From: a virus
Lineage: Duplodnaviria > Caudoviricetes
Direction: 5' to 3' (one strand)
IMG/VR virus record: IMGVR_UViG_2595698649_000001
Span: 1-64,000 of that record
DNA length: 64,000 bases
Position numbers and translations under genes: made by a program. Shown one piece after another: positions 5,232-13,807 of the stretch (positions within the stretch are counted from its first letter, which is position 1; every line of letters starts with the position of its first letter). The notes below the pieces were generated by a model that saw only the letters and a list, made by a program, of their open reading frames with translations, ran no database searches and was not told the DNA's origin.

Positions 5232-5239
5232 TATAAATA
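5232..5239 (+). promoter_or_regulatory. T4-type late promoter for gp32, followed by an A-rich unstructured leader
   Basis: TATAAATA. Confidence 0.75.
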
Positions 5240-6279: not shown

Positions 6280-6900
6280 ATGATTAAAAGTTTTATTGAA
6301 CATAGACTATTTCCTACTACAGTATATCAGAATGAGATACCTGTAAATCAAAACGAATTTACTACAATAAAAGAAATAGATTATGAGCGTATGCCTAGTG
6401 ATAATGGGTATATGACAAGGTACAAAAGAATTTTAACACTATTACCTGATACAAGAAAATCAATAGAAAAACATATAAATTATTATGCTTATGATGTACT
6501 AGGTATATCTCATAAACATAAATTTCATATCACTACAAGTTGGGTTAACAGACATAAAACAGGTGATAAAGCACACACACATTTTCATGCTAATTCATTG
6601 ATAAGTGGTTGTTACTATCTAAAAATGCCAGAGAGTGGTGGTGATATTTGTTTTCCTAAACCTACTAATCATAATAATTTTTTAAGTGATACATTTAATT
6701 TTGACACACAGGTAACTAACGAAAGAAATTCAGCAGAGTATAAGATAGATGTTAAAGAGGGTATGATACTATTATTTCCGTCTCAGACAAGACATTTTAC
6801 TCAGATAAATAATTCTATAGAGGATAGATACTCACTTGCATTTAATGTATGGACTAAAGGTGAGATAGGTTACGAAGATATAGAAAAGATTAAATTATAA
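6280..6900 (+). CDS. 2OG-Fe(II) oxygenase-like protein (TIGR02466-like)
   Basis: LFPT, SWVN..HFHANSLISGCYY..LLFPS..H..RYSLAFN. Confidence 0.8.
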   Translation: MIKSFIEHRLFPTTVYQNEIPVNQNEFTTIKEIDYERMPSDNGYMTRYKRILTLLPDTRKSIEKHINYYAYDVLGISHKHKFHITTSWVNRHKTGDKAHTHFHANSLISGCYYLKMPESGGDICFPKPTNHNNFLSDTFNFDTQVTNERNSAEYKIDVKEGMILLFPSQTRHFTQINNSIEDRYSLAFNVWTKGEIGYEDIEKIKL

Positions 6901-7181
6901 TGGATTTATTTTTAGACATATTAGTTGATTTTGGATTACCAGTTGCTGGTGCAATGGTAATGGGTGTCTTTATATACATTATCCTTAAATACATATTAGC
7001 AGGTGTTGTAGGTCAAGTTGCCACAATTACAATGTTAATCTCAGCATTAGACAATAGAATTAAAACAATGAACCACGACATGATTAAATTAGATATATTA
7101 ATCAGTAGCGCTCTAAACTTACGACCAGATTTAGATAGAGTTTCCAGGTCAGATGGTAAAGAAGACGCAAGGAAAGATTGA
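6900..7181 (+). CDS. small membrane protein with coiled coil; paralog of the next gene
   Basis: N-terminal TM helix then LDNRIKTMNHDMIKLD. Confidence 0.7.
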   Translation: MDLFLDILVDFGLPVAGAMVMGVFIYIILKYILAGVVGQVATITMLISALDNRIKTMNHDMIKLDILISSALNLRPDLDRVSRSDGKEDARKD

Positions 7182-7462
7182 TGGTTGAAGTAGAAGTAAC
7201 AGCACCTATTATAGATATGTTAAATAGATACGGATTTGCCTCTGTAGCAGCAATTGCTATGGGTTGGTTTATCTATTTTATTTACAACTTTGTGACTGGT
7301 AATATCATAGAAAAATTAGACAAGGCACAAATGACGACTATAGCACTAATAGACCGTATTAGAATGCTAGACAATGACTTAATACGATTAAGGTCAAAAC
7401 TTAATACAGTATTAGAAATGAGAGAAAATGAAGAAAATAACAGACGTAAAAAACCAGATTAG
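7178..7462 (+). CDS. small membrane protein with coiled coil; paralog of the previous gene
   Basis: TM helix then LIDRIRMLDNDLIRLR. Confidence 0.7.
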   Translation: MMVEVEVTAPIIDMLNRYGFASVAAIAMGWFIYFIYNFVTGNIIEKLDKAQMTTIALIDRIRMLDNDLIRLRSKLNTVLEMRENEENNRRKKPD

Positions 7463-7553
7463 TTACCTTAACGCCTTATTTCAAGGCGCCCTTGCATTAT
7501 TAGCATTGTTTGCCATAGCGATATTACTCGTATTCATCACACAATTATTATAA
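7428..7553 (+). CDS. 41-aa single-TM peptide
   Basis: Manual translation MKKITDVKNQISYLNALFQGALALLALFAIAILLVFITQLL. Confidence 0.45.
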   Translation: MKKITDVKNQISYLNALFQGALALLALFAIAILLVFITQLL

Positions 7554-7556
7554 ATA
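7549..7556 (+). promoter_or_regulatory. T4-type late promoter heading the csgF-csgG operon
   Basis: TATAAATA 5 nt before ATG 7562. Confidence 0.75.
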
Positions 7557-7561
7557 GTAGC

Positions 7562-8038
7562 ATGAAAAGTACACTAAAAAGTGTACTAGGGGTAACATTG
7601 TTATGTACTATTTTGACTTCCACTAGTACATCATCAGAAATCGTCCATGAGTTTAAAAATCCTGCGTTTAGCGGCAATGGGTATAGCTCTCATGTACTTT
7701 CTGTAGAACAGTTACAATCAAACAGAAAAAAACAGGTAGCAGATGACGCTAAGTCAGCAGCATCAGCTACTGAAAGAGCAGAGAAAAATAAAACAATAAA
7801 CAAATTTATTGCCAATGTAGAAAGTAGAATTTACGCTAATCTTTCTAAACAGTTAGTAGATAATATGTTTGGTGAGTCCTGTACAGGTACTTGTCCTACA
7901 TCTGGTACTGCTGATATAGAAGGTTCTACAATTTATTGGGTCAAAGATACAACTACAGAAATAATTACATTAACCGTTACAGACGAAAATGGCACGGTAA
8001 CACAATTAACCGTACCAATGGGTGATTTTAATTTTTAG
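7562..8038 (+). CDS. csgF: curli assembly protein CsgF-like
   Basis: Signal peptide; mature N-terminus EIVHEFKNPAFSGN resembles the CsgF FxNPxFGG motif; directly upstream of csgG. Confidence 0.8.
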   Translation: MKSTLKSVLGVTLLCTILTSTSTSSEIVHEFKNPAFSGNGYSSHVLSVEQLQSNRKKQVADDAKSAASATERAEKNKTINKFIANVESRIYANLSKQLVDNMFGESCTGTCPTSGTADIEGSTIYWVKDTTTEIITLTVTDENGTVTQLTVPMGDFNF

Positions 8039-8044
8039 GATTTT

Positions 8045-8887
8045 ATGGGTGCATTAGAAATATTAAAAGTGTTAGGAGTGGTTTGCCTGTTGACTGGCTG
8101 TGCTAGTACAAATAGTGCTTATAAGAATGGTGAATATAAAGCACCATACATAGAGGGCACAACAACAAGTAAGTTGTTAGAAGAAATACCTGATTTAGAT
8201 AAACAACCACAGATAACAATTGCAGTTTATGATTTTAGCGACCAAACTGGTCAAAGAAAACCAAGTACAAAGTTTTCTCAATTATCAACGGCAGTAACAC
8301 AAGGTCCTGATGTATGGGTTATCAATGCATTAAAAACTGTGAGTGGTGGTGATTGGTTTAAAGTTGTAGAACGAAAAGGACTAAATAATCTAGTTAAAGA
8401 AAGACAATTAATTAGGTCTACTAGAGAATTATATGATGGAGAAAGTGATGTTAAAAATCAATTAAAACCTATGTTATTTGCCGGTCTTATTGTAGAGGGT
8501 GGCATAGTAGGTTATGATACTAACACACAATCTGGTGGTGTAGGTGCAAGATATTTTGGTATTGGTATCAATGAAATGTACCGTACAGACCAAGTAACAG
8601 TTTCATTAAGATTAGTTGCAGTACAAACAGGAGAAATATTATTAACTGTTAATGCAACAAAAACAATTGCCTCTTACAGTAAAGGCGGCGATGTGTTTAG
8701 ATTTTTAGATATGGGTACAAGAGCACTTGAACTAGAACAAGGTTCAGCTGTGAATGAACCAGTTAGTTATGCTATACGAACAGCAATAGAATATGCAATC
8801 TTGCAAATGATATATGAAGGTGTAAATTGTGATTTATGGAAAATGCAAGGTGTAAAGGAGATAAAAATACATGAAAACAATAACTAA
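8045..8887 (+). CDS. csgG: curli secretion channel CsgG (outer-membrane lipoprotein)
   Basis: Lipobox LTGC; IAVYDFSDQTGQRKP, STAVTQG, WFKVVERKGLNNLVKERQLIR, EGGIVGYD, GGVGARYFGIG. Confidence 0.93.
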   Translation: MGALEILKVLGVVCLLTGCASTNSAYKNGEYKAPYIEGTTTSKLLEEIPDLDKQPQITIAVYDFSDQTGQRKPSTKFSQLSTAVTQGPDVWVINALKTVSGGDWFKVVERKGLNNLVKERQLIRSTRELYDGESDVKNQLKPMLFAGLIVEGGIVGYDTNTQSGGVGARYFGIGINEMYRTDQVTVSLRLVAVQTGEILLTVNATKTIASYSKGGDVFRFLDMGTRALELEQGSAVNEPVSYAIRTAIEYAILQMIYEGVNCDLWKMQGVKEIKIHENNN

Positions 8888-9557
8888 AATAGTTATGTTT
8901 TTGATGATGTTAACAATGCCAGTAATGGCAAATGACATTTATGTAACTCAATCTGGTGCTACACTAGATTTAGATATATTACAAGACGGACAAAACAACA
9001 CAATAGGTAACAGTACCACAGCGTCAACTGTAACAGGTGCTACCACGACTTTAAATATTGACCAAGTTGGTGATAGTAACGTACTAACCTTTGACATTAA
9101 TGGTGCAACTTATACTGGTACTTTTGATGTAACTGGTAATAGTAACAACATTGATTTCAATTGTGATAGTGCAGGAACAGTTAGTTCATGTGCTACGGTT
9201 ACTGCCTCTGTTGTATGGGTAGGTTCTTCAAACGACTTAGACATTGACATAGGTGAAACAGCAGACGCTTCAAACGCTGCCGTTACAATATCAGGTGCGT
9301 CAGGTAGTGATAGTAATGTTATAAATGCTACAATAGATGGTACAAGTGTTATCCTTACTTTATCAGTAAACGGTGATACTAACAATTACTTACTAGACAT
9401 AGACGGAGATGGTGATAGTGCAGGACATACACTTATACACACTCACACAGGTTCAATCGCTGATGTAGATATCACACAATCAGGTATCTATGACAATATG
9501 ATTACACTAACAACTTCAGGTGATAACCACGATATAGATATAATCCAGAGAGACTAA
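8871..9557 (+). CDS. curlin-repeat secreted protein (CsgA/CsgB-like)
   Basis: Signal peptide; repeated I-x-Q-x-G-x-x-N beta-arc units (IYVTQSG, ILQDGQNN, IDQVGDSN, ITQSGIYDN). Confidence 0.75.
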   Translation: MKTITKIVMFLMMLTMPVMANDIYVTQSGATLDLDILQDGQNNTIGNSTTASTVTGATTTLNIDQVGDSNVLTFDINGATYTGTFDVTGNSNNIDFNCDSAGTVSSCATVTASVVWVGSSNDLDIDIGETADASNAAVTISGASGSDSNVINATIDGTSVILTLSVNGDTNNYLLDIDGDGDSAGHTLIHTHTGSIADVDITQSGIYDNMITLTTSGDNHDIDIIQRD

Positions 9558-9559
9558 TA

Positions 9560-10666
9560 ATGTCTAAATGGTTTCTAACCTTTTTCATAATCTTTTATGC
9601 TAGTCATAGTTTGGCTAGCATAGGAGAGGTAACACAAATAAAAGGTAATGGTGTTGTAGATAGAAAAGATGGCGAAAAAGAAATCATCCTAGAAAAAGAA
9701 ACAGATATATTTTCATACGATACAGTTAAAACAGGCAATGGTAAAGTTGGTATAGAATTTATAGACTTAACTAGAGTTGATGTAACTGAACATAGTAAAC
9801 TTATCATAGATGAATTTGTTTACGACCCTAATACTAAAACAGGTAAACTATCATTAAAGGCAAAACTAGGCACAATCAAATACGCCTCAGGTCAGATTGC
9901 CAAAAATTCAAAACAGAATGTAAAGATAACAACACCTACAGCAACGATTGGTGTTCGTGGTACAGACTTTACAATGACTATTGATGAGATAGGTTCATCT
10001 ACAATTATTTTATTGCCAAGTTGTGATACAAATGGTAATTGTTTTGTAGGTGAGATAAGTGTAGAAAGTGACGCTGGTCAAGTTATACTTAATCAGGCAT
10101 TTCAAGCAACTGTAGTTGACAACCTTGTAACTAGACCATTGTCACCTGTAATTTTAGATTTAGATGAAGATATGATTAACAATCTATTAATAATATCTAA
10201 ACCGGCAGAGATAGAACAAATGCAAAACGAAGAAGGATTAAATGAAGTTGCAGACGCATTAGATATTGACTTTTTACAATTTGATGATTTAGAACAAGAC
10301 TACTTAGAAGAAGACGAAAGTCAATTTGTTACAGGATTAGATATAGATTTTTTAGAACAAAATTTTTTAGTTGATATTTTAAAACAAATAAACGAAGAAT
10401 TGGCAAAAGCAATGAGGTCAGAATTTGATAAACAAAAATCAGTTGATGGTATCATATTAGGTAAAAATCCAGAAACTGGTGTTATAATATTAGATGAGGA
10501 TCCACAATGGGTTTGGAGTAGAGAAGCTGCTAGTGGTTCTTTTATTGAATTAAGATTAGATAAAGAGTATGGTTATGTATTAAATGTAATACAAGGTGAG
10601 TTTGTACAATACGATTTTGAATTAGGAGGGCAAGAAAATGCGATTACGATTAATCAGACTAATTAA
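9560..10666 (+). CDS. FecR-domain secreted/periplasmic protein
   Basis: Signal peptide; DTVKTGNG..I.F.D.T...TEHS.L.ID..ITTPTATIGVRGTDF FecR signature; acidic linker. Confidence 0.85.
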   Translation: MSKWFLTFFIIFYASHSLASIGEVTQIKGNGVVDRKDGEKEIILEKETDIFSYDTVKTGNGKVGIEFIDLTRVDVTEHSKLIIDEFVYDPNTKTGKLSLKAKLGTIKYASGQIAKNSKQNVKITTPTATIGVRGTDFTMTIDEIGSSTIILLPSCDTNGNCFVGEISVESDAGQVILNQAFQATVVDNLVTRPLSPVILDLDEDMINNLLIISKPAEIEQMQNEEGLNEVADALDIDFLQFDDLEQDYLEEDESQFVTGLDIDFLEQNFLVDILKQINEELAKAMRSEFDKQKSVDGIILGKNPETGVIILDEDPQWVWSREAASGSFIELRLDKEYGYVLNVIQGEFVQYDFELGGQENAITINQTN

Positions 10667-11963
10667 AGATAATTTATTACTGGCATTTTTAGTATGTTTC
10701 TTGTTTACAACTTCAACAAATGCAGGAACTTTAAATTATAAAACATATGCTATAACTACCTATGCACCAAGCCTAGAATTTCCTTTCTATGATAATTCAA
10801 CAGGTTATAACACAGATGGTTCAAATTCCAGTCCATATGGTTTAGGTAGTGTACTCAGCACAGGAACTATATCAAGTCCAAGTGGATATTATTGGGGTAG
10901 TGGTCAGGTATTAGATAGTGGAAGAAGTGAATATGTGGCAGTAGAAGTCACAGGTTACATCACTTGGCCAGGTACAACAGGACAAGAAACAACAGTTTAC
11001 TTTGGCGTAGCGGCTGATGATGGTGTGTTTATGAACATAGATGGTACAAATGTTATTACAGATTGGCAACAACAAGGTTGGGGGTATTGGAACGCAACTG
11101 GTTCATTAACAAAGACTGCTGGCCAACAATATGAAATTACAGTATGGATGTATGAATGGGGTGGCGCAGCTGCTTTAGATATTAATTACTGTATGACTAA
11201 CTCTTATTCAACTTCTTGTCAAACAGATTTGCCAACTTCGTGGTTTTCAACAACACAAGTTATACCAACCTCAGGCATAACAAATGCACAAACAACAGAA
11301 TTTAATACATTTAGAAATAAATCTGTAAGTGGTAATCAAATTTATGTTACACAAACAGGTGATGGCAATACTTTAAATATTCTACAAGATGGTGACGATA
11401 ACTTAATTATTGGTACAAACTTAACATCAGCTGCTGTGATAAATGGTGATAACAATGCTACAGACATAGACCAACTTGGTAACGATAATGTTTTAGGTTT
11501 AGATATAACAGGTTCATCAAACAATGTGGCAGTTACACAAAACCAAGACCAAAGGGCAAAGTTATCTATAACAGGTTCATCAAACAATGTAGATTTAGAC
11601 CAGTCAGCAATTAACTATGTTGGTGAGCATTATATGTCAGTCACTATAGCAGGTAATAGTAATAATGTTGATGTAGACCAAACAGAAACAGGAAATAAGA
11701 AATTGTTTTTAGATATAGACGGTAGTAATAATGTTGCAGTAGACCAAAAAGGTACAGGCAATCACTATGCAGAAATAACATTGACTGATAGTCATAATGT
11801 AGATGTAACGCAAGACGGAAGTGGCGACCACAATGCCACTATTAATTTAAGTGGTAATACTTCTACTCTTACTTTGACACAGGATAGTTCAACAGACCAA
11901 AATTATTACTTATATCAAAATTGTACACAAACAAGTTGCTCAGCAACAGTCACACAAAACTAA
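10638..11963 (+). CDS. PA14-domain plus curlin-repeat secreted protein
   Basis: Signal peptide; PA14-like FGVAADDGVFMNIDG..YEITVWMYEWGGAA; C-terminal half made of Q-x-G-x-x-N repeats. Confidence 0.75.
   Translation: MRLRLIRLIKDNLLLAFLVCFLFTTSTNAGTLNYKTYAITTYAPSLEFPFYDNSTGYNTDGSNSSPYGLGSVLSTGTISSPSGYYWGSGQVLDSGRSEYVAVEVTGYITWPGTTGQETTVYFGVAADDGVFMNIDGTNVITDWQQQGWGYWNATGSLTKTAGQQYEITVWMYEWGGAAALDINYCMTNSYSTSCQTDLPTSWFSTTQVIPTSGITNAQTTEFNTFRNKSVSGNQIYVTQTGDGNTLNILQDGDDNLIIGTNLTSAAVINGDNNATDIDQLGNDNVLGLDITGSSNNVAVTQNQDQRAKLSITGSSNNVDLDQSAINYVGEHYMSVTIAGNSNNVDVDQTETGNKKLFLDIDGSNNVAVDQKGTGNHYAEITLTDSHNVDVTQDGSGDHNATINLSGNTSTLTLTQDSSTDQNYYLYQNCTQTSCSATVTQN
11504..11590 (+). repeat. exact 24-bp direct repeat, 63-nt period, within the curlin repeats
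   Basis: TATAACAGGTTCATCAAACAATGT at 11504 and 11567. Confidence 0.85.
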
Positions 11964-11971
11964 ATAGTAAT

Positions 11972-13807
11972 ATGAAGTATTTGACCCATTGGCTAACTGC
12001 CTTTGTAACCGTAGTCTTATTGACTTATGTAGGTCTACAGGATCCAGGTTTTAAAGAAACACTACGACTTAAATCTTTTGACTATCTATTAGCAAACGAA
12101 GAAAGAACACCCTCACAAGACATAACAATCTTAACCATAGACGAACAAGCAATAGAGAAGTATGGTCAATGGCCGTGGCCGAGAAAAGTCTTAGCAGACA
12201 TTATAATTAAGTTAAGACAAAACGATACAGGTATCATTGTCATGCCAATATTGTTTAGTGAACGAGATAGATTTGATGGTGATATGGATTTTTGTGAGAC
12301 ACTTACATATGGTACAGTTATTGCTCAAGTAGGTACATCACAAAAACGAAAATCTAATCCTGTGCCACGAGGTGTTGCAAAGATAGGTGACCCATTAAAC
12401 TTTTTATTTGAATGGGATGGTATGGTAGGTCCTCTACCTGAATTAGCAGAATGTACAAATGGTGTAGGTGTTATCAATACAGCACCAGAGATAGATGGTG
12501 TTACAAGACGAGTACCTTTATTAATGAAAATAGGTGATGAAGTATATCCTAATATGGCAATAGAAGTCATAAGAGTTGCAGTTGGCGATCCTAGTTATCA
12601 AGTTAAAGCAGACATGAATGGTGTTGTTGCAATGAGAGTACCGGGTTACGATACCATAAATACAGATACAAACGGTAGAATTTGGGTACGCTGGAACAAA
12701 GACTTTAGGGTAGTGTCTGCTGGCAATGATGAGGATTTCCAGAAAGCAGCAGGTACAACTGTCATAATTGCTATGACAGCAGAAGGATTAGGGGGTGTCA
12801 TTGCAACGCCAATAGGCGAACAATATGATTATGTTGTTAGTGCAAATACTTTACAGACAATACTTGATGGCGAAACAATACAAAGAGCAGACTGGTTAAT
12901 AGAATTAGCTGTTGCATTTTTCCTAGGATGTGTTATAGTATTAGTATGTAGATTTTTACCATATTGGGCAATTGCCATTGCTCTAGTAGCAATCACATTT
13001 TCTGCTGGTTATTATATCACATTTACTTTCAAAAGTCAACTGTTATTTGATATTTCTTGGATATTAGTGACTGCTTTTGTAGTAGCATTCCATAGTACAT
13101 TTTTAAGATTTATATTAGAGTTTAGGGCGAAACAACAAATTAGAAAACAGTTTGAGAAGTATCTGGATCCACGACAAGTGGCGATACTAGTAAAAGACCC
13201 TAGTAAATTAAAACTAGGTGGCGAAAGAAAAGAAATGTCCTTCTTATTCATGGACATTGTAGGTTTCACACCTATAAGTGAATACTATAAAAACAAAGAT
13301 GATCCAGAGGGATTAGTAGAAGTCATTAATGACTATCTAAACAGAATGAGTAATATAGTATTAAAGAACGGTGGTACAATTGATAAGTACATGGGCGATT
13401 GCATAATGGCGTTCTGGAACGCACCCCTTGACTGTCCTAATCATGCGGAGATGGCAGTTAGAACAAGTATAGAGTGTGCTGAAGAAACAGATAAAATCAA
13501 AGAAGAATTTAAACAAAAAGGATTACCTGATATTAACATAGGTTCAGGTGTTAATACAGGAACATGTATCGTTGGTAACATGGGTAGTGAAGCAAGACTT
13601 GACTATTCAGTTATTGGTGACGCTGTGAATTTGGCAGCCAGATTAGAGGCACAAACACGAAACTATAAAGATGAGAAAGGCAAAGTTACACCAACATTGT
13701 ATTCGTCTTATACGAAAGAACAACTTACGAATATTAAGTCTGTTGAAGTAGATAAGATAAAAGTAAAAGGCAAAGAAGAGCTAATTACTATTTTTAAACC
13801 ACAATAA
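11972..13807 (+). CDS. CHASE2-domain membrane adenylate cyclase (class III)
   Basis: CHASE2 motifs IDE..I..YGQWPWPR and DGVTRRVPL; three TM helices; cyclase motifs FMDIVGFT, IDKYMGDCIMAFWNAP, GNMGS..RLDYSVIGDAVNLAARLE; ATG 11972 follows a late-promoter variant ACTAAATA. Confidence 0.93.
   Translation: MKYLTHWLTAFVTVVLLTYVGLQDPGFKETLRLKSFDYLLANEERTPSQDITILTIDEQAIEKYGQWPWPRKVLADIIIKLRQNDTGIIVMPILFSERDRFDGDMDFCETLTYGTVIAQVGTSQKRKSNPVPRGVAKIGDPLNFLFEWDGMVGPLPELAECTNGVGVINTAPEIDGVTRRVPLLMKIGDEVYPNMAIEVIRVAVGDPSYQVKADMNGVVAMRVPGYDTINTDTNGRIWVRWNKDFRVVSAGNDEDFQKAAGTTVIIAMTAEGLGGVIATPIGEQYDYVVSANTLQTILDGETIQRADWLIELAVAFFLGCVIVLVCRFLPYWAIAIALVAITFSAGYYITFTFKSQLLFDISWILVTAFVVAFHSTFLRFILEFRAKQQIRKQFEKYLDPRQVAILVKDPSKLKLGGERKEMSFLFMDIVGFTPISEYYKNKDDPEGLVEVINDYLNRMSNIVLKNGGTIDKYMGDCIMAFWNAPLDCPNHAEMAVRTSIECAEETDKIKEEFKQKGLPDINIGSGVNTGTCIVGNMGSEARLDYSVIGDAVNLAARLEAQTRNYKDEKGKVTPTLYSSYTKEQLTNIKSVEVDKIKVKGKEELITIFKPQ

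Follow-up and report, generated by a model that had tools for sequence, protein, structure and literature searches.

The window analysed here comprises positions 1 to 64,000 of the virus record IMGVR_UViG_2595698649_000001 (Duplodnaviria; Caudoviricetes) and is part of a complete record of 147,284 bases, presumably the genome of the cultured myophage NC_020484. Between 6900 and 13807 it contains eight same-strand open reading frames (ORFs), which are predicted to encode the components of a curli-type, or type VIII, secretion system (T8SS), a secreted protein with a FecR-type fold and a receptor adenylate cyclase with a CHASE2 sensor domain (Table 1). The genes are tightly packed, as a preliminary description of this DNA had proposed, with junctions from csgF to the cyclase gene ranging from -29 to +8 nt (gap or overlap). 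The same description had called CsgF, a CsgG with a lipobox, a FecR-domain protein, a PA14-curlin fusion and a CHASE2 cyclase, and Pfam matches together with hydropathy bear out each of these assignments. N-termini and transmembrane helices were judged throughout by simple hydropathy rather than with a dedicated predictor. On this measure CsgF, curlin1, the FecR-fold protein and the PA14-curlin protein all begin with signal-like hydrophobic segments.

Table 1. Genes and promoter motif of the curli-FecR-CHASE2 module (positions in the window).
Feature	Position	Strand	Description
orfA	6900..7181	+	93-aa small membrane protein, paralogue of orfB, phrog_18771
orfB	7178..7462	+	94-aa small membrane protein; C-terminal tail helical, charged; paralogue of orfA
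T4-type late promoter motif TATAAATA	7549..7556	+	6 nt 5' of csgF ATG
csgF homologue	7562..8038	+	158 aa, signal-like N-terminus; PF10614
csgG homologue, outer-membrane T8SS channel	8045..8887	+	280 aa, lipobox L-T-G-C; PF03783
curlin1, divergent curlin-repeat protein	8871..9557	+	228 aa, signal-like N-terminus
Secreted FecR-fold protein	9560..10666	+	368 aa; PF04773, AlphaFold2 model, Foldseek
PA14 + curlin-repeat fusion	10638..11963	+	441 aa; Pfam
Receptor adenylate cyclase	11972..13807	+	611 aa; Pfam CHASE2 + Guanylate_cyc

The channel protein is the most readily recognised of the curli components. CsgG matches PF03783 (E = 4.8e-53), carries its lipobox at residues 16-19 and aligns end to end, over residues 11-272, with E. 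coli CsgG structures (1e-49). CsgF matches its family over almost the whole profile (4.7e-16, profile positions 5-132 of 132) and gave no phmmer match to solved CsgF chains at E<=0.01. The PA14-curlin fusion is recognised through both of its parts (PA14 2.7e-6, Curlin_rpt 5.2e-8, Pfam), while curlin1 alone has no significant Pfam match (Curlin_rpt E = 1.1). Since BLASTP finds curlin1 to be homologous to that half of the PA14 protein which holds the curlin repeats (4e-14), and an alignment of 11 phage orthologues displays conserved repeats of the Q-x-G-x-x-N type, the original curlin call holds, as a divergent member of the family. Judged by these repeats, predicted secreted subunits of the CsgA/CsgB type are present in the module and are putatively amyloid-forming. 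The phage set therefore shares with the E. coli curli system an end-to-end CsgG, a CsgF member and curlin-type repeats, but it differs in that one curlin is fused to PA14, the other is too divergent for the Pfam repeat model, and CsgE, CsgC and a CsgD-type regulator are missing. No match to CsgE, CsgC or GerE/CsgD-type proteins was obtained anywhere in the 147,284-base genome at E<=0.1, with controls detected. Nor does the genome encode an extracytoplasmic function (ECF) sigma factor, its sole Sigma70_r2 match being a gp55-like late sigma, so that an absence previously noted for the window extends to the whole genome. Alphaproteobacterial curli loci are also described as having no CsgE, CsgC or CsgD (Wittmers et al., 2022; PMC9599517), and these proteins are thus not defining for the wider curli family. 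Three Brevundimonas jumbo phages (ON529855, ON529860 and ON529853) encode distant CsgG-like proteins at 28% identity, annotated as hypothetical, so CsgG-family genes are not restricted to pelagiphages; a CsgG-like gene at 44% identity also occurs on one 1.5-kb Salmonella phage fragment.

The protein encoded downstream of curlin1 matches the FecR family (PF04773, 1.2e-8) and has a signal-like N-terminus, a FecR/PupR-like beta domain (residues ~20-205), an acidic linker (~213-295) and a C-terminal beta domain (~300-368). An AlphaFold2 model built on a 57-sequence alignment has a mean predicted local distance difference test score (pLDDT) of 73, with values of ~90 for the beta domain 20-205 and 62-81 for the C-terminal beta domain, and a disordered linker. 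In Foldseek the model matches two periplasmic signalling domains, that of PupR (6ovk_R, 2.2e-4) and that of an anti-sigma factor from Parabacteroides (4m0n, 4.4e-4), both at a target TM-score of ~0.5, and also 5ix9 (E 1e-2, target TM-score 0.75), on which it superposes with a root-mean-square deviation (rmsd) of 1.1 Å over 63 columns at 35% identity. The phage FecR family profile independently matches 5ix9 at 3.7e-6; the resemblance is limited to the first ~63-70 residues of the FecR domain. The structure 5ix9 is that of RIN, which plugs the TolC pore from the periplasm and so keeps the Marinomonas ice adhesin in place (PMC5550230), and the LapA retention module has been modelled on it (bioRxiv 10.1101/198937). 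Each is a beta domain located in the periplasm and linked to a secretion pore of the outer membrane. RIN, however, is the N-terminus of a giant type I secretion substrate threaded through TolC, whereas the phage protein is a 368-aa polypeptide, apparently exported by the Sec pathway, that is encoded beside a T8SS. The C-terminal half gave no usable match in the protein atlas searched. Neither the hydropathy profile nor the model reveals an anti-sigma domain, a transmembrane helix or any hydrophobic segment beyond the signal-like one, and the operon contains no FecI or TonB-dependent transducer gene (TonB-dependent receptors were not searched for genome-wide). Because anti-sigma domain, transmembrane helix and ECF sigma factor are all missing, the protein is predicted to have a FecR-type fold but not to be a FecR-type regulator.

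At the 3' end of the module, translation of the cyclase most likely starts at the ATG at 11972 (611 aa) rather than at the TTG at 11921 given by the ORF lister. In the longer, 628-aa frame Pfam identifies CHASE2 at 32-337 (9.8e-39) and Guanylate_cyc at 437-624 (2.8e-19). The protein begins with one transmembrane helix, followed by a periplasmic CHASE2 domain (~23-305), a hydrophobic block (~305-382) compatible with the three transmembrane helices of the preliminary description, and a class III catalytic domain (~395-611). The nearest solved relatives of the catalytic domain are genuine adenylate cyclases, namely Pseudomonas aeruginosa CyaB (3r5g, 3.2e-31), a bacteriophytochrome-cyclase fusion (6fht, 7.9e-31) and 2w01 (7.8e-28). 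Eight phage sequences show no variation at D428, D476, K472, N553 and R557, these positions are conserved to at least 90% across a set of 78 sequences from phages and bacteria, and the motifs align with those of CyaB. From the class III cyclase literature we take D428 and D476 to be the metal-binding aspartates, K472 the substrate-binding lysine, and N553 and R557 the transition-state residues. At the second specificity position, the Thr of the CyaB motif D-Y-T-I-I-G is replaced by Ser in the phage. The catalytic motifs thus appear intact, and the product is most likely cyclic AMP (cAMP). Related protein clusters number in the thousands; the matches listed among them are taken up by phage relatives and offer no bacterial context.

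The two small paralogues at the 5' end of the run, orfA and orfB, have hydrophobic N-termini and match no Pfam family at E<=0.01, and none of relevance at E<=10; in particular, no HisKA/HATPase core was found. Judged by position, they seem to be the genes labelled 'HK' by Wittmers et al. (PMC9599517), a label that does not fit proteins of 93-94 aa with no kinase domain. The atlas neighbours of orfB are exclusively viral hypothetical proteins. Both genes stay beside the module even in loci where they lie on its far side and on the opposite strand (loci L154, L156 and L194-L199).

Transcription of the module probably begins at a single late promoter. Of 63 distinct phage regions upstream of csgF, 47 have the motif TATAAATA starting 13-16 nt ahead of the gene. 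It is found at the same placement in none of the regions upstream of the FecR gene (0/62), csgG (0/56) or curlin1 (0/72), and in 2 of 74 upstream of the cyclase gene. Across the whole window the motif is not above chance (13 found, 11.9 expected), and for this reason only its conserved placement counts. A gp55-type late sigma gene is present in the phage genome, outside the window (phrog_234, 7e-65). The T4 late promoter placed at 7549 by the preliminary description is therefore upheld. The variant it had placed at 11959 is not: the sequence there reads only CTAAATA and falls within the last part of the PA14-curlin gene, and 2 of 74 loci have an exact motif there and 7 of 74 a relaxed one. Since the motif is conserved before csgF and the variant is not conserved, one transcript most likely runs from csgF to the cyclase gene. 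Exact copies of TATAAATA also occur at 5232 and 6267, before gp32 (start 5296) and a 2OG-Fe(II) oxygenase gene (start 6280), so the genes just 5' of the module may also have late promoters. Between the orfB stop and the csgF promoter lies a short G+C-rich hairpin (7468-7490; 6-bp stem, no T run), which could be a partial terminator or processing site. Contigs from marine RNA libraries of two studies match the module with 0-2 differences and bridge curlin1 and FecR (9468-9966) and PA14-curlin and cyclase (11958-12387); another bridges orfB, csgF and csgG (7140-8071) with 7 differences. Such contigs, with DNA carry-over possible, indicate presence only, not transcription, strand or level, and the little or no cover of bins 10658-11205 in the RNA-library contigs of four runs likewise proves nothing. 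Expression of the module in metatranscriptomes has been reported (PMC9599517).

The module is inherited as a unit. IMG/VR contains at least 581 stretches with relatives of the cyclase and at least 304 with relatives of the FecR protein; we kept the 80 best of each scan, giving 149 distinct loci that are the closest relatives (62-100% identity) and include some contigs twice. Among the 53 loci that have the cyclase and at least 5.5 kb of upstream sequence, all carry csgF, csgG, curlin1 and FecR in that order, and 52 also have orfA and orfB upstream. Conversely, wherever a FecR locus extends at least 4 kb downstream, the cyclase is present (59 of 59). Gene order is unchanged in the OM43 phage Melnitz, at 43-54% identity. 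In a divergent clade whose seed FecR is 44% identical, the set is kept in 6/6 assessable loci at 32-45% identity (32-35% for the cyclase), with orfB and orfA downstream on the other strand. FecR and the cyclase are 316 to 6265 bp apart in the 53 loci, nine of which have at most 501 bp there, so the second curlin, in the PA14 slot, is a variable and optional element. Most loci have 0.3-2.5 kb here, and one IMG/VR contig (L012, L142) has a 6.3-kb insertion between the two genes. Over 31 sequences the mean pairwise identity is 84% for the cyclase domain, 78% for curlin1, 75% for the FecR N-domain, 74% for CsgF, 69% each for CHASE2 and CsgG, 67% for the FecR C-domain and 47% for the transmembrane block, suggesting strong constraint on the cyclase domain and the FecR N-domain. 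A megablast of the region against GenBank phages gave no match, in a searched set that may exclude near-identical records.

Looking for the same gene pair in bacteria, a scan with the FecR alignment over one genome per species returned eight loci. Six of these lie in metagenome-assembled genomes (MAGs) and had appeared as full-length bacterial FecR matches, a status we reject since each contig carries the complete phage module, orfA and orfB included (L152-L157); most probably, binning has placed contigs of phages in bacterial genomes. The MAGs concerned are titled Flavobacteriaceae, Candidatus Pelagibacter, Pirellulales, Rhodobacteraceae, Legionellales and Polynucleobacter, and one of them (G002) holds at least four such contigs. 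In the other two loci, both from Acidobacteria, a gene for a FecR-OmpA protein overlaps one for a CHASE2-HD_5 (HD-GYP-type) protein. We also sampled 401 genomes of one class, presumably Alphaproteobacteria, in which CHASE2 occurs in 180, relatives of the phage cyclase (E<=1e-40) in 140, FecR-like matches (E<=1e-8) in 130 and CsgG-like matches in 25. A FecR-like gene lies within ~6 kb of 5 of the 20 closest bacterial CHASE2 cyclases (tblastn); from ~292 FecR-like matches in the 401 genomes and an assumed genome size of ~3.5 Mb, we roughly estimate the chance expectation for 20 loci as well under 0.1. Around the closest bacterial CsgG genes (41-48% identity), at seven loci, neither a FecR-like gene nor a CHASE2 gene lies within ~10 kb. 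The co-occurrence that the preliminary description had suggested testing across phages and bacteria is complete in all assessable phage loci sampled and does not extend to these seven bacterial curli loci.

Two genomes of the presumed SAR11 host family contain an operon of a CHASE2-PP2C gene, a gene for a 435-464 aa protein with no assigned family and one for a FecR-domain protein of 504-903 aa, on contigs of 0.7-1.2 Mb (L188 G119:C1:318000-334000; L189 G393:C1:25000-41000); the host side has in it a CHASE2/FecR cassette whose output is a phosphatase. In one small genome (G012; locus L190, G012:C4:619000-637000) a CHASE2 cyclase is flanked by two small cyclic nucleotide monophosphate (cNMP)-binding proteins, a cNMP-binding-HlyD fusion and an ABC ATPase, beside a cluster of TolC, a 918-aa FecR-domain protein, ABC and HlyD. 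The locus looks like a cAMP-controlled type I secretion system for a FecR-headed surface protein. Published examples include the 'BiofilmReg' operon described in Burkholderiales, with a LysM-FecR protein and a CHASE2 kinase (PMC5192318), and a Campylobacterota set of FecR protein, CHASE2 cyclase, phosphodiesterase and TPR protein (PMC9239204). From these gene neighbourhoods, FecR plus CHASE2 emerges as a bacterial cassette that recurs without being obligatory and has outputs of four types (kinase, cyclase, HD-GYP-type and PP2C); joining it to curli genes seems peculiar to phages. Since the adjacency recurs in unrelated bacteria, it is reasonable to regard FecR and CHASE2 as a functional pair.

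The phage and bacterial cassettes are alike in placing a gene for a secreted FecR-domain protein beside one for a CHASE2 membrane receptor, and the Campylobacterota and alphaproteobacterial CHASE2 cyclases have an architecture identical to that of the phage enzyme. They differ in that the bacterial partners described often carry peptidoglycan-binding LysM or OmpA domains, in place of which the phage protein has a disordered, acidic linker followed by a small beta domain at its C-terminus. The bacterial cassettes are also not linked to curli, and some include cNMP-binding proteins or a phosphodiesterase that the phage does not have. A functional parallel comes from Sinorhizobium meliloti, where activation of the CHASE2 cyclases CyaD1, CyaD2 and CyaK is reported to depend on the outer-membrane beta-barrel NsrA, in a trans-envelope relay to cAMP (PMC13001267). 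There, however, the partner is NsrA and not CsgG, and the read-out is the CRP-like Clr, a member of the CRP family of regulators, a type not found in the phage or the typical host. The S. meliloti FecR-domain protein SMc02177 is described as a cAMP target that is dispensable for signal perception (PMC5498481).

This gene set has been described before. CsgF and CsgG were reported in pelagimyophages by Zaragoza-Solas (2020; PMC7029224), and Buchholz (2022; PMC9004378) modelled the CsgG/F pore of Melnitz and proposed a role in lysis timing; FecR, the cyclase and CHASE2 go unmentioned in the main texts of both papers. Wittmers et al. (2022, mSystems; PMC9599517) described the cluster in its entirety, for pelagiphages of both the podo- and the myo-type: 'HK' genes, CsgF, CsgG, CsgA/B, FecR, often a second CsgA/B, and an adenylate cyclase. 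They found FecR, HK and cyclase genes not to be part of bacterial T8SS operons, inferred an alphaproteobacterial origin with transfer from myo- to podophages, reported a global distribution, and took FecR to be an iron-related regulator; their trees name the cultured myophage record NC_020484. Because that paper includes FecR and the cyclase, with the same gene set and order and no difference in gene content, the module as found here was already known: the preliminary description was right that the curli part had been published, but the FecR and cyclase genes had been placed in the module in 2022 as well. What sets our account apart from the pelagiphage papers is the identity of the components, since there CHASE2 is not named, FecR is an iron regulator and the 93-94 aa genes are histidine kinases. 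CHASE2 has no mention in the main texts of the three papers, the extent of the material considered; their supplements, which may list CHASE2 or bacterial neighbourhoods, fall outside it. Our literature search found no paper linking CHASE2 to the phage curli module or to phage cAMP. New here are the view of FecR plus CHASE2 as a recurrent bacterial sensor cassette with four output types, unlinked to curli in bacteria, the FecR fold with its RIN-like first subdomain, the 'kinases' that have no kinase domain, and the lack of a cNMP-binding domain in the phage and in 78 of the 81 genomes sampled from the presumed host family.

Taken together, we favour, with moderate confidence, a reading in which a curli pore-and-fibre set, expressed late, has been joined to a cAMP-making periplasmic sensor of the bacterial FecR/CHASE2 kind. 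One half of the module (csgF, csgG and one or two curlin-repeat genes) would build an outer-membrane CsgG/CsgF channel exporting amyloid-type repeat proteins onto the surface of the infected cell. The other half would consist of the Sec-exported FecR-fold protein and the inner-membrane CHASE2 receptor with its class III adenylate cyclase output. FecR and CHASE2 are likely partners, and by analogy with the bacterial FecR/CHASE2 cassettes we infer a contact through which the FecR-fold protein, as a periplasmic co-sensor, would modulate CHASE2. The pair would then turn a periplasmic or envelope cue, presumably one present while pore and fibre are being made, into cAMP. A trans-envelope relay of this kind is plausible, and the S. 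meliloti system is a precedent for an outer-membrane protein acting on a CHASE2 cyclase.

Several observations weigh against this reading. No clumping was seen in Melnitz cultures (PMC9004378), which leaves fibre production unproven. FecR is absent beside 15 of the 20 closest bacterial CHASE2 cyclases, so such cyclases can work without it, and the bacterial sequences that match the phage FecR domain best are N-termini of giant proteins, mostly not listed near CHASE2. In podophages FecR is reported always to accompany the curli genes and the cyclase only frequently (PMC9599517), so that the bond of FecR with curli is closer than its bond with the cyclase. In partial Mantel tests over 31 sequences, a kind of test that is liberal on related sequences, the FecR N-domain shows no significant association with CHASE2 after correction for the curli genes (partial r=0.03). 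The output also has no known reader: the phage genome contains no cNMP-binding, GAF or GAF_2 domain, and in 81 sampled genomes of the presumed host family, many of them incomplete, PF00027 occurs in three and PF00211 in two, in a scan in which other cyclase classes and receptor types were not searched for. In the genomes searched, as far as domain matches can tell, neither phage nor host is visibly equipped to read cAMP, and this is the main unexplained point. It also bears on the original proposal, upheld in part, that the genes form one circuit in which a fibre or channel state would be relayed to cAMP, which could time lysis or sense contact. One inherited and probably co-transcribed unit is upheld by the gene order in 53/53 and 59/59 loci, in Melnitz and in 6/6 loci of the divergent clade, together with the single promoter, but a fibre or channel state as the input is conjectural, and the timing of lysis or sensing of contact by cAMP is left with no recognisable read-out.

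The main rival holds that the FecR-fold protein is mainly an accessory of the T8SS rather than a co-sensor of the cyclase, its folded N-terminal beta domain docking under CsgG or plugging it from the periplasmic side, and that the CHASE2 cyclase senses something else and is merely co-inherited; the accessory would replace the missing CsgE gate or act like the RIN-type retention anchor of RTX adhesins. We regard this as doubtful, though a real possibility. It draws on the match of the phage FecR profile to 5ix9, a pore plug, and the close superposition with it, on the missing CsgE, on the universal pairing of FecR with curli genes in podophages and on the 918-aa FecR-domain protein within the secretion cluster of G012. 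It also draws on covariation, as the sequence distances of the FecR N-domain follow those of CsgG (partial r=0.39, p=0.0005) and not CHASE2. The 5ix9 match, however, is confined to the first ~70 residues of the domain, every assessable phage locus sampled has the cyclase, and FecR and CHASE2 adjacency recurs in bacteria with no curli genes nearby. The covariation is also poor in specificity, because it links CsgF with CHASE2 still more strongly (partial r=0.45, p=0.0005), where the association cannot be a contact. Given this and the liberal test, we rejected covariation as evidence of contacts. The FecR C-domain shows a weak and non-specific association with CHASE2 (partial r=0.31, p=0.002), and the distance matrices of the FecR N- and C-domains are uncoupled (partial r=0.02, not significant), suggesting recombination within the acidic D-x-D-F-L-rich linker (codons ~213-295). 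As a lead, this pattern fits a two-headed FecR and, equally, recombination blocks. In a two-headed arrangement, which we think rather unlikely, the RIN-like N-domain would sit on the periplasmic face of CsgG in place of CsgE and the C-domain on CHASE2, and cAMP would report whether the pore is occupied or open.

Two further readings start from published proposals. An extension of the lysis-timing model of Buchholz (PMC9004378) would make CsgG/CsgF a gated pinholin or secretin-like channel whose opening is set by orfA/orfB, FecR and cAMP. This agrees with the late promoter, with the structural modelling and synteny argument of that paper and with the constant presence of two small membrane proteins, and the nearest named atlas clusters of orfB are holin-like. 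Their scores of 0.84-0.87, however, fall below the tool's reliability limit of 0.9 and provide a lead only, and no lysis gene was shown to be adjacent in the region of the window examined. CsgG is moreover an outer-membrane lipoprotein and not an inner-membrane holin, and the one or two conserved curlin genes (curlin1 at 78% mean identity) and the lectin-type PA14 fusion would be left unexplained, making lysis timing improbable in our view. Iron or cofactor uptake, with FecR as a ferric-citrate-type regulator and the CsgG channel importing siderophores or cofactors, follows from the Pfam family name and the discussion of Wittmers et al. (PMC9599517). Here the signal-like N-terminus takes the place of the cytoplasmic anti-sigma domain and transmembrane helix, the genome has no ECF sigma factor, and the genes alongside encode a CHASE2 receptor and curlins rather than a TonB-dependent transducer. 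FecR domains also serve roles unrelated to iron, in anchoring adhesins and as partners of CHASE2 kinases, phosphatases and HD-GYP proteins, and we consider this explanation very improbable.

Overall, we present a known system with a refined and testable reading. Two published labels, iron regulator and histidine kinase (PMC9599517), are corrected, and the recognition of FecR/CHASE2 as a generic sensor cassette turns a 'regulatory' annotation into concrete questions of binding and activity. If the FecR-fold protein did bridge CsgG and CHASE2, the virus would be installing a secretion-coupled second-messenger circuit in a lineage largely without cAMP cyclases and receptors, and the cAMP would be read by a receptor of neither CAP nor GAF type, possibly encoded by the phage or met outside the cell after release. 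The module is very widespread. Phages with it infect SAR11 and OM43, which are among the ocean's most abundant bacteria, and the module would give the infected cell both an outer-membrane secretion system and a second messenger that is mostly missing from the presumed host family. It may also serve as a compact natural system for learning what CHASE2 domains sense in bacteria.

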